64,000 nucleotides of DNA from Escherichia coli (GTDB lineage Bacteria; Pseudomonadota; Gammaproteobacteria; Enterobacterales; Enterobacteriaceae), in NCBI RefSeq assembly GCF_003334765.1, contig NZ_QOWT01000007.1; one strand, 5' to 3'. The notes beneath the pieces were generated by a model. It was not told the DNA's origin. It did not search any database and was given only the letters and a program-made list of their open reading frames with translations. Each line of letters opens with the position of its first letter. The first letter of the stretch is position 1. The translations under genes were made by a program, and so were the position numbers. Of the stretch, positions 18,922 to 19,537 are shown one piece after another.

Positions 18922-19537
18922 TTTTTATCAAAAAAATCATAAAAAATTGACCGGTTAGACTGTTAACAACAACCAGGTTTTCTACTGATATAACTGGTTA
19001 CATTTAACGCCACGTTCACTCTTTTGCATCAACAAGATAACGTGGCTTTTTTTGGTAAGCAGAAAATAAGTCATTAGTGAAAATATCAGTCTGCTAAAAA
19101 TCGGCGCTAAGAACCATCATTGGCTGTTAAAACATTATTAAAAATGTCAATGGGTGGTTTTTGTTGTGTAAATGTCATTTATTAAAACAGTATCTGTTTT
19201 TAGACTGAAATATCATAAACTTGCAAAGGCATCATTTGCCAAGTAAATAAATATGCTGTGCGCGAACATGCGCAATATGTGATCTGAAACACGCTTTATC
19301 ACCAGTGTTTACGCGTTATTTACAGTTTTTCATGATCGAACAGGGTTAGCAGAAAAGTCGCAATTGTATGCACTGGAAAAATATTTAAACATTTATTCAC
19401 CTTTTGGCTACTTATTGTTTGAAATCACGGGGGCGCACCGTATAATTTGACCGCTTTTTGATGCTTGACTCTAAGCCTTAAAGAAAGTTTTATACGACAC
19501 GCGGCATACCTCGAAGGGAGCAGGAGTGAAAAACGTG

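Follow-up and report, generated by a model that had tools for sequence, protein, structure and literature searches.

In the window, that is, the whole 64,000-nucleotide stretch of Escherichia coli DNA analysed here, rsmG (gidB) and the atp operon (atpIBEFHAGDC) are separated by a spacer of 616 bp (18922-19537, plus strand). The last base of the rsmG stop codon is 18921, and the ATG of atpI, as annotated in K-12, is at 19538; an alternative in-frame GTG start at 19526, upstream of this ATG, would bring the spacer to 604 bp. The K-12 equivalent is NC_000913.3 3922441-3923056, about 2.6 kb from oriC, and a 751-bp stretch around the spacer is found in 5425 of 5426 complete E. coli genomes, intact in 5422 of them. 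One has to bear in mind that this control region of the atp operon has been studied before, and that its promoter and CRP, ArcA, IHF and Fis sites have all been published; the new part is the map of conserved blocks across genera, together with the locking of the spacer length, neither of which we found in the literature searched.

The base composition of the spacer sets it apart within the window, with a guanine-plus-cytosine (GC) fraction of 0.356 against a mean of 0.508 (standard deviation, sd, 0.040, for windows of 616 bp); the lowest-GC 616-bp window of the 64 kb falls here (0.338, starting at 18884). Runs of at least five A/T bases number 12, or 19.5 per kb compared with 3.2 per kb window-wide, and include those at 18922, 18930 and 18941 on the rsmG side and at 19096, 19140, 19158 and 19197 further on. 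The spacer also includes a 503-bp stretch free of any open reading frame (ORF) of at least 60 amino acids (aa), the second largest such stretch in the window. The original prediction, made from the letters alone, had described a spacer of about 600 bp between rsmG and atpI, AT-rich with long A/T runs around 18920-18960 and 19080-19200; its coordinates are exact and the run positions agree with ours. Other low-GC stretches of the window lie at about 53106-53721 (0.351), coinciding with a 448-bp ORF-free gap at 53264-53711, and at about 35117-35732 (0.373).

Length and block conservation across genera

Orthologous spacers were compared in E. coli and 61 other species of Enterobacteriaceae (62 species from about 25 genera), to which four Erwiniaceae were added, giving 66 species in all. 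In the 61 other Enterobacteriaceae species, the spacer measures 597-621 bp, with an sd of 2.9 bp and a coefficient of variation (CV) of 0.005. The comparison of length CVs covers six neighbouring gaps: the mioC-mnmG gap containing oriC (15967-16344), which served as a positive control, varies from 369 to 466 bp (CV 0.03), a constancy that an origin should show, and three other nearby gaps have CVs of 0.17-0.28. At the level of individual columns, 253 of the 632 in the alignment are at least 90% conserved; in the remaining ones, identity is 0.46, compared with 0.44 at the 4-fold degenerate sites of rsmG. Between E. coli and any other genus there are only about two single-base insertion or deletion (indel) events, and the distances between anchors are nearly constant across species. 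Since substitutions outside the conserved columns behave as neutral and indels are rare, although AT-rich homopolymer DNA should be prone to them, we infer selection on the spacing itself; judged from these alignments, this points to a spacing-constrained nucleoprotein architecture behind the length conservation.

Erwiniaceae spacers are longer (711-816 bp), the extra 100-200 bp lying mainly beside rsmG, with the core blocks retained and a single internal interval differing, by +11-12 bp; the core blocks persist as well in a more distant relative, L091. The conservation profile has a modest peak at 10.9 bp. We do not claim conservation of helical phase, given one family difference of +11 bp together with changes of +8 and -16 bp in other lineages.

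These comparisons also bear on the possibility that the spacer is a foreign or degraded remnant, either horizontally acquired AT-rich DNA silenced by H-NS or the decayed slot of genes such as parAB, which other gamma-proteobacteria, among them Vibrio and Pseudomonas, have between gidB and atpI. The GC fraction is indeed far under that of the genome, the region is a catalogued promoter island, and one of three predictors calls it foreign. Such an origin is nevertheless largely refuted by conservation, as Enterobacteriaceae, Erwiniaceae and more distant relatives all have homologous blocks in this position, with clear purifying selection on them, without any parS-like sequence in the spacer. A parAB remnant was likewise rejected after inspection of eight AtpI contexts (to 32% identity), none of which contains parAB: among the five that reach upstream, gidB adjoins atpI in four (spacers of 251-718 bp) and a different neighbour is found in one. 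We, thus, regard a remnant as exceedingly improbable.

Promoter, leader and coding potential

The main promoter of atpIBEFHAGDC, the sigma-70 promoter atpIp, lies on the plus strand at 19419-19446, with a -35 hexamer TTGAAA (19419-19424), a 16-bp spacer and a -10 hexamer TATAAT (19441-19446). It matches the consensus at 11 of 12 positions, is the sole sigma-70 match in the scanned interval 18200-20200, and is invariant in the 62 Enterobacteriaceae species and in the Erwiniaceae. The atp transcription start site (TSS), which is expected near 19450-19453 from the -10 hexamer and from the work of Nielsen et al. 1984, is the reference for all positions given relative to the TSS. A published sigma-70 chromatin immunoprecipitation (ChIP) peak (Myers 2013 Table S2) maps to about 19478, with roughly double the strength under aerobic conditions; insertion of a terminator just downstream of atpIp lowers the expression of atpI, atpB and atpE 7-17 fold, and atpIp is given as the main promoter (PMC9277811). 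The same ChIP survey places an FNR peak inside atpI, at about 19773, near minor internal promoters (Myers 2013). Downstream of atpIp, the atpI 5' leader of about 84 nt (19454-19537, plus strand) is nearly invariant in sequence and carries the Shine-Dalgarno motif AGGAG (19522-19526), 11 nt before the ATG; it has neither a significant or conserved fold (z +0.72) nor a match in Rfam.

Coding and RNA signals were both sought in the spacer. Across the 62 Enterobacteriaceae species, no ORF is kept in start or position, length or sequence, and the conservation profile is devoid of 3-nt periodicity (power 0.19, where the 95% level of the null is 3.4). The two small ORFs listed for the interval by program, 19425-19610 (minus strand, 61 aa) and 19465-19689 (plus strand, 74 aa), are mechanical TTG-start ORFs only, intact in three of the 66 species, all of them Escherichia; the minus-strand frame meets a stop after 8 codons in 55 species. 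Sliding-window RNAalifold on both strands gave consensus energies of about 0 kcal/mol and no conserved fold, and Rfam returned no match in the spacer at E<=1. With no conserved ORF, no periodicity, no fold and no Rfam match, the spacer is non-coding. The original prediction had held as much, had dismissed both small ORFs and had placed the atp promoters in the spacer; all this fits our results, with the promoters reduced to the one consensus sigma-70 promoter that lies under the published ChIP peak. Hidden small ORFs and a structured RNA were, thus, rejected as candidates; a search for internal repeats gave only short two-copy matches at chance level.

Some 8 nt into the atp leader begins a mini-ORF of six codons (MLDSKP, ATG to TAA, 19461-19481), which has no Shine-Dalgarno motif. 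Its ATG is present in 52 of the 66 species, several species have lost its start or stop, and variation touches every codon position, with the fifth and sixth codons varying freely; it is probably not a gene.

At the other end of the spacer, E. coli has a hairpin at 19009-19046 followed by a run of seven U (19047-19053), with a folding energy of -14.3 kcal/mol and a z of -3.66, which overlaps one of the conserved blocks (Block C, see below). It is the probable 3' end of the mnmG-rsmG transcript, a putative intrinsic terminator that a simple scan missed because of its internal loop. This hairpin is not conserved: no consensus pairs are found in 16 genera, and other genera have different or weak hairpins; a conserved rsmG terminator was accordingly rejected, this one being confined to E. 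coli. Two Erwiniaceae loci (L068 and L075) carry a strong canonical terminator, AAAAACCGCC...GGCGGTTTTTTTTT, in the first 60 bp or so after rsmG, which the Enterobacteriaceae lack. Upstream of rsmG, the 63-bp mnmG-rsmG gap contains a hairpin with a 12-bp stem (TGCCTGGTAAGC-GGGT-GCTTACCAGGCA, 18246-18273) that is terminator-like on the minus strand only; from one species to another this gap measures anything from -4 to 118 bp, in sharp contrast to the atp spacer.

These features bear on whether a small gene lies in the spacer, be it a short ORF that is translated, a small RNA or an antisense one. Secreted RNAs have been reported to include short ones mapping to the atpI/rsmG intergenic space (PMC8082180), RNA polymerase binds to promoter islands, the mini-ORF start codon is widespread, and a terminator-like hairpin 130 nt after rsmG in E. 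coli makes an RNA derived from the 3' untranslated region conceivable. Set against this, coding and folding signals are both absent on the alignments, the hairpin is not conserved and the mini-ORF is not maintained; we consider a hidden gene very improbable.

Regulator sites on the conserved blocks

Published coordinates were placed on the window with the ArcA box sequence as an anchor. The CRP site TGTGATCTGAAACACG (19278-19293) was found with a scan for TGTGA-N6-TCACA, with two mismatches, and is centred at 19285.5, about -167.5 from the TSS. TGTGATC and CACGCTTT are invariant in the alignments; four lineages keep 141-142 bp between the CRP site and the -35 hexamer, and all species, the Erwiniaceae as well, keep 129 bp between CACGCTTT and that hexamer. 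Of four more distant relatives examined, whose spacers measure 251-718 bp, three have a recognisable CRP site; the motif of distant relatives stands at the same place with one and zero mismatches, better than in E. coli. This is the CRP site that Footprint-seq has located, as taTGTGAtctgaaGCACGctt, at K-12 position 3922697 (PMC12871828); atpI is a CRP target in genomic SELEX (systematic evolution of ligands by exponential enrichment), and its promoter activity is lower in a crp mutant (Shimada 2011). The site at 19278-19293 accounts for this SELEX target "atpI". Its centre coincides with none of the classical class I or class II positions (-41.5; -61.5, -72.5, -82.5 or -92.5), and lies no more than about 1 bp off the helical face of class I sites. 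At position 19289, in the right half of the site, the window strain has A and K-12 and most other genera have G (TGTGATCTGAAaCACG versus ...GCACG).

Further upstream, the motif scan picked up the ArcA box CTGTTAAAACATTATTAA (19124-19141, plus strand), made of two direct repeats 11 bp apart (TGTTA at 19125 and TATTA at 19136) and centred at about -320; its TGTTAAA core is invariant in the alignment. The same 18-mer is a listed ArcA box (13 bits) under ArcA peaks from ChIP-chip as well as from ChIP-seq at window positions of about 19172-19203 (Park 2013 Tables S1, S3, S4). Assigning a role to ArcA here also rests on the published sigma-70 ChIP peak at atpI being lower anaerobically.

Next to it is the IHF site, Block D (19066-19101, plus strand, about -363), with the core TATCAG-TCTG-CTA at 19084-19096 (one mismatch to WATCAR-N4-TTR) and an upstream A-tract (GAAAA). 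The site is a near-invariant block of 23 bp, the sole variable columns of which (19090-19092) fall on N positions of the IHF consensus, and an IHF ChIP-chip peak (U00096.2 3920844-3920960) maps onto window 19038-19154 (Myers 2013 Table S4). A second IHF-like candidate, Block G (AAATATCATAAACTTG, 19208-19223, plus strand, about -236), comes from the motif scan only (WATCAA-N4-TTR, one mismatch) and is partly conserved.

Fis is placed at the rsmG end of the region by published data and has a candidate site at the promoter end. The conserved A/T tracts right after the rsmG stop codon form Block A (18918-18940), with an FNR-like motif, TTAATTTTTATCAA, at 18918-18931 (one mismatch); TTGATAAAAATTAA at U00096.2 3921070 is a predicted FNR site that is unbound in vivo and overlapped by Fis in ChIP-seq (Myers 2013 Table S6). 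Near the promoter, a Fis-like site, GAAAAATATTTAAAC (19376-19390), is predicted from a consensus scan with one mismatch, at about -70 from the TSS, in columns that are all invariant. Just downstream of it is an invariant DnaA-box-like sequence, TTATTCACC (19393-19401, about -60 to -52 of atpIp), and the distant relative L088 has a perfect DnaA box, TGTGGATAA, at positions 20-28 of its shorter spacer.

Several conserved blocks remain in between: the palindrome TGTTAACA (Block B, 18960-18968), conserved in the 62 species; the scaffold TTACATTTAAC-N7-TnAC-N8-wTC-N7-TAAC (Block C, 19000-19053, plus strand), delineated from the alignments, in which conserved bases recur every 11 bp or so; and AATGTCAAT-N4-GGTTTTT (19143-19163), the most deeply conserved distal block, which is also found in Erwiniaceae and in the distant relative L091. 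Scans for Fur, Cra and Lrp sites gave nothing convincing.

Regarding nucleoid proteins more broadly, window 18819-19259 corresponds to promoter island 3920739_440 atpI/rsmG, one of 78 that interact with H-NS in two datasets (Panyukov & Ozoline 2013). Our sigma-70 scan is stricter than the PlatProm of this catalogue, with one site found versus 2.4 expected in shuffled sequences. The original prediction had proposed curved DNA bound by nucleoid proteins. Binding is upheld by the published IHF peak at 19038-19154, the Fis region at the rsmG-proximal end and H-NS on 18819-19259; curvature is weakly supported: the AA/TT power at 9.8 bp is above that of shuffled sequences in E. coli (2.49, against a 95% level of 1.2), an excess that is not conserved across species. 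What that prediction lacked was the regulators CRP and ArcA and the extreme conservation of length.

With so many architectural proteins (IHF, Fis and H-NS) on a region some 2.6 kb from the origin, one may wonder whether the array serves mainly the chromosome, standing between the oriC/mioC/mnmG-rsmG domain and the atp operon, itself heavily transcribed, as a protein-bound insulator or topological barrier. The oriC-like pattern of conserved blocks set apart by variable stretches of constant length, held even more strictly than in oriC, and a constraint that takes in the full 616 bp, beyond what a promoter usually requires, would both agree with such a role. The content of the blocks speaks otherwise: with up to one mismatch allowed, the spacer scan found no DnaA box, parS, matS or SlmA site (the best DnaA match has 2 mismatches, the best parS 5 and the best matS 3, with no SlmA match at all), and the metabolic regulators CRP and ArcA occupy conserved blocks. 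Moreover, of all distances, the one between the CRP site and the -35 hexamer of atp is the most deeply fixed, linking the array to the promoter, and insertions of 2-7 kb do not prevent growth. An origin-linked function, thus, seems unlikely.

A composite control region and its known relatives

We propose, with a probability of roughly 75%, that the spacer is a non-coding composite cis-regulatory region to which the 3' end of the mnmG-rsmG transcription unit is joined. The promoter, the absence of a gene, the conservation of the blocks and the locking of the length are facts of the locus on which this proposal builds, as is the published binding of CRP, ArcA, IHF, Fis and H-NS in vivo or in vitro. 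From rsmG to atpI, the order would be Fis-bound A/T tracts, terminator, IHF (-363), ArcA (-320), the IHF-like candidate (-236), CRP (-167.5), the Fis-like site (-70), atpIp and leader. The benders IHF, CRP and Fis, together with H-NS on the AT-rich distal part, would fold the upstream DNA, about 450 bp, into a defined nucleoprotein complex, through which carbon supply (cyclic AMP-CRP), redox state (phosphorylated ArcA) and growth phase may tune transcription from atpIp. In such a complex, the sites would have to hold their relative spacing and orientation, so that the length of the spacer would be selected even where its sequence drifts. We infer, in other words, that distal sites acting on atpIp by folding or looping are the cause of the fixed length.

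A stronger version can be put forward more tentatively, as a possibility that we rather doubt: the whole of the 450-600 bp may work as a spacing-locked, enhanceosome-like machine in which IHF, CRP and Fis bends, ArcA and at least three or four further binders stand at fixed distances. The further binders would sit on blocks 18960-18968, 19000-19041, 19143-19163 and 19308-19330. If true, this would explain why length is held tighter than that of oriC across Enterobacteriaceae. To our knowledge, neither long-range geometry-dependent control, of the kind here proposed for a housekeeping operon, nor a barrier role beside the origin has been described for atp.

A number of observations weigh against the composite-regulator proposal. 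In the literature examined, we found no experiment showing that the distal blocks affect atpIp; the CRP (-167.5), ArcA (-320) and IHF (-363) sites are far beyond the classical positions for activation or repression; and the proteins assigned so far cover only part of the conserved blocks. Helical-phase evidence is thin, the one +11-bp event standing against the two other shifts. As for ArcA, atpI is confined to the binding-site tables among the Park 2013 supplementary files searched, and, in the passage of Ravcheev et al. 2007 that cites it, an older reporter study (Kasimoglu 1996) is given as finding atp expression independent of Fnr or ArcA. The occupancy by H-NS depends on the dataset, an anaerobic H-NS region lying instead over atpI-atpB, at about 19480-20448 (Myers 2013). 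Finally, strains with 7-kb cassettes in the spacer are viable, and so is E. coli UMNF18 (locus L002 4396-6516), where an IS91-family element of about 1.8 kb, encoding a hypothetical protein and a transposase, is inserted at window position 19245 or so; laboratory growth, therefore, does not require the architecture. The UMNF18 insertion lies between the distal blocks on one side and the CRP site and promoter on the other, in one of about 4 genomes out of 5426 with a non-intact spacer.

This tolerance is what one would expect if only the proximal 160 bp or so (promoter, Fis-like site and leader) were functional, the distal 450 bp being neutral AT-rich "safe harbour" filler that draws abundant DNA-binding proteins non-specifically. 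The K-12 gidB-atpI gap is, indeed, widely used as a neutral integration site for constructs, ChIP signals of nucleoid-associated proteins on AT-rich DNA can be non-specific, and an ArgR ChIP-chip signal at atpI was unconfirmed by ChIP-exo. Filler would, however, hardly keep distal blocks invariant in about 25 genera while the adjoining columns drift at synonymous rates, nor its length to 0.5%; in addition, the sites of CRP, ArcA and IHF fall exactly on conserved blocks, and blocks persist in Erwiniaceae and beyond. We find this account decidedly improbable, and each of the four alternatives considered here is much less likely than a composite regulatory region. The atp spacer offers a compact natural case of selection acting on spacer length over sequence, with five global regulators mapped, and could become a test bed for the control of a strong housekeeping promoter by distal, phased sites.

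The closest known system is the K-12 gidB (rsmG)-atpI region, which is the same locus and shares with the window its promoter, its ArcA box, the CRP site and the IHF peak, as well as the listing as a promoter island and the role of integration site; the window comes from another E. coli strain and differs from it, for example, by the A for G at 19289 in the CRP site. The evolutionary conservation of this "neutral" landing site implies that insertions may perturb atp regulation under conditions that are seldom tested. The promoter islands of Shavkunov, Panyukov and Ozoline are a second point of comparison, since the atp spacer is catalogued among them, is AT-rich and interacts with H-NS. Most islands accompany horizontally acquired genes, whereas the atp spacer is core, syntenic, strongly conserved and holds one sigma-70 match.

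The origin of replication offers the nearest evolutionary parallel. From the work of Zyskind and colleagues in 1983, oriC is said to be made of conserved blocks split by variable spacers of fixed length, and the same signature is seen 2.6 kb away in the atp spacer, in a stricter form (CV 0.005 versus 0.03). Unlike oriC, the atp spacer is without AT-rich 13-mers and DnaA boxes at one mismatch or fewer, bears no sign of origin function, and has blocks that match metabolic regulators.

As for promoters, acs P2 and nir each combine one sigma-70 promoter with several hundred bp of DNA carrying CRP or FNR sites along with IHF and Fis sites, which remodel the upstream DNA and integrate carbon, oxygen and growth-phase signals; the atp spacer, too, has CRP, IHF and Fis-like sites upstream of a single sigma-70 promoter. 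The difference is that the activator sites of acs P2 and nir lie at about -40 to -150 and have been dissected experimentally, whereas in atp the CRP site is at -167.5 and ArcA and IHF are beyond -300. The rrn P1 promoters are strong, respond to growth rate and have a Fis site near -71 together with an UP element, a layout that the invariant Fis-like site near -70 in atp would resemble, as far as its sequence can tell; the atp region reaches much further upstream than rrn P1, and adds CRP, ArcA and IHF.

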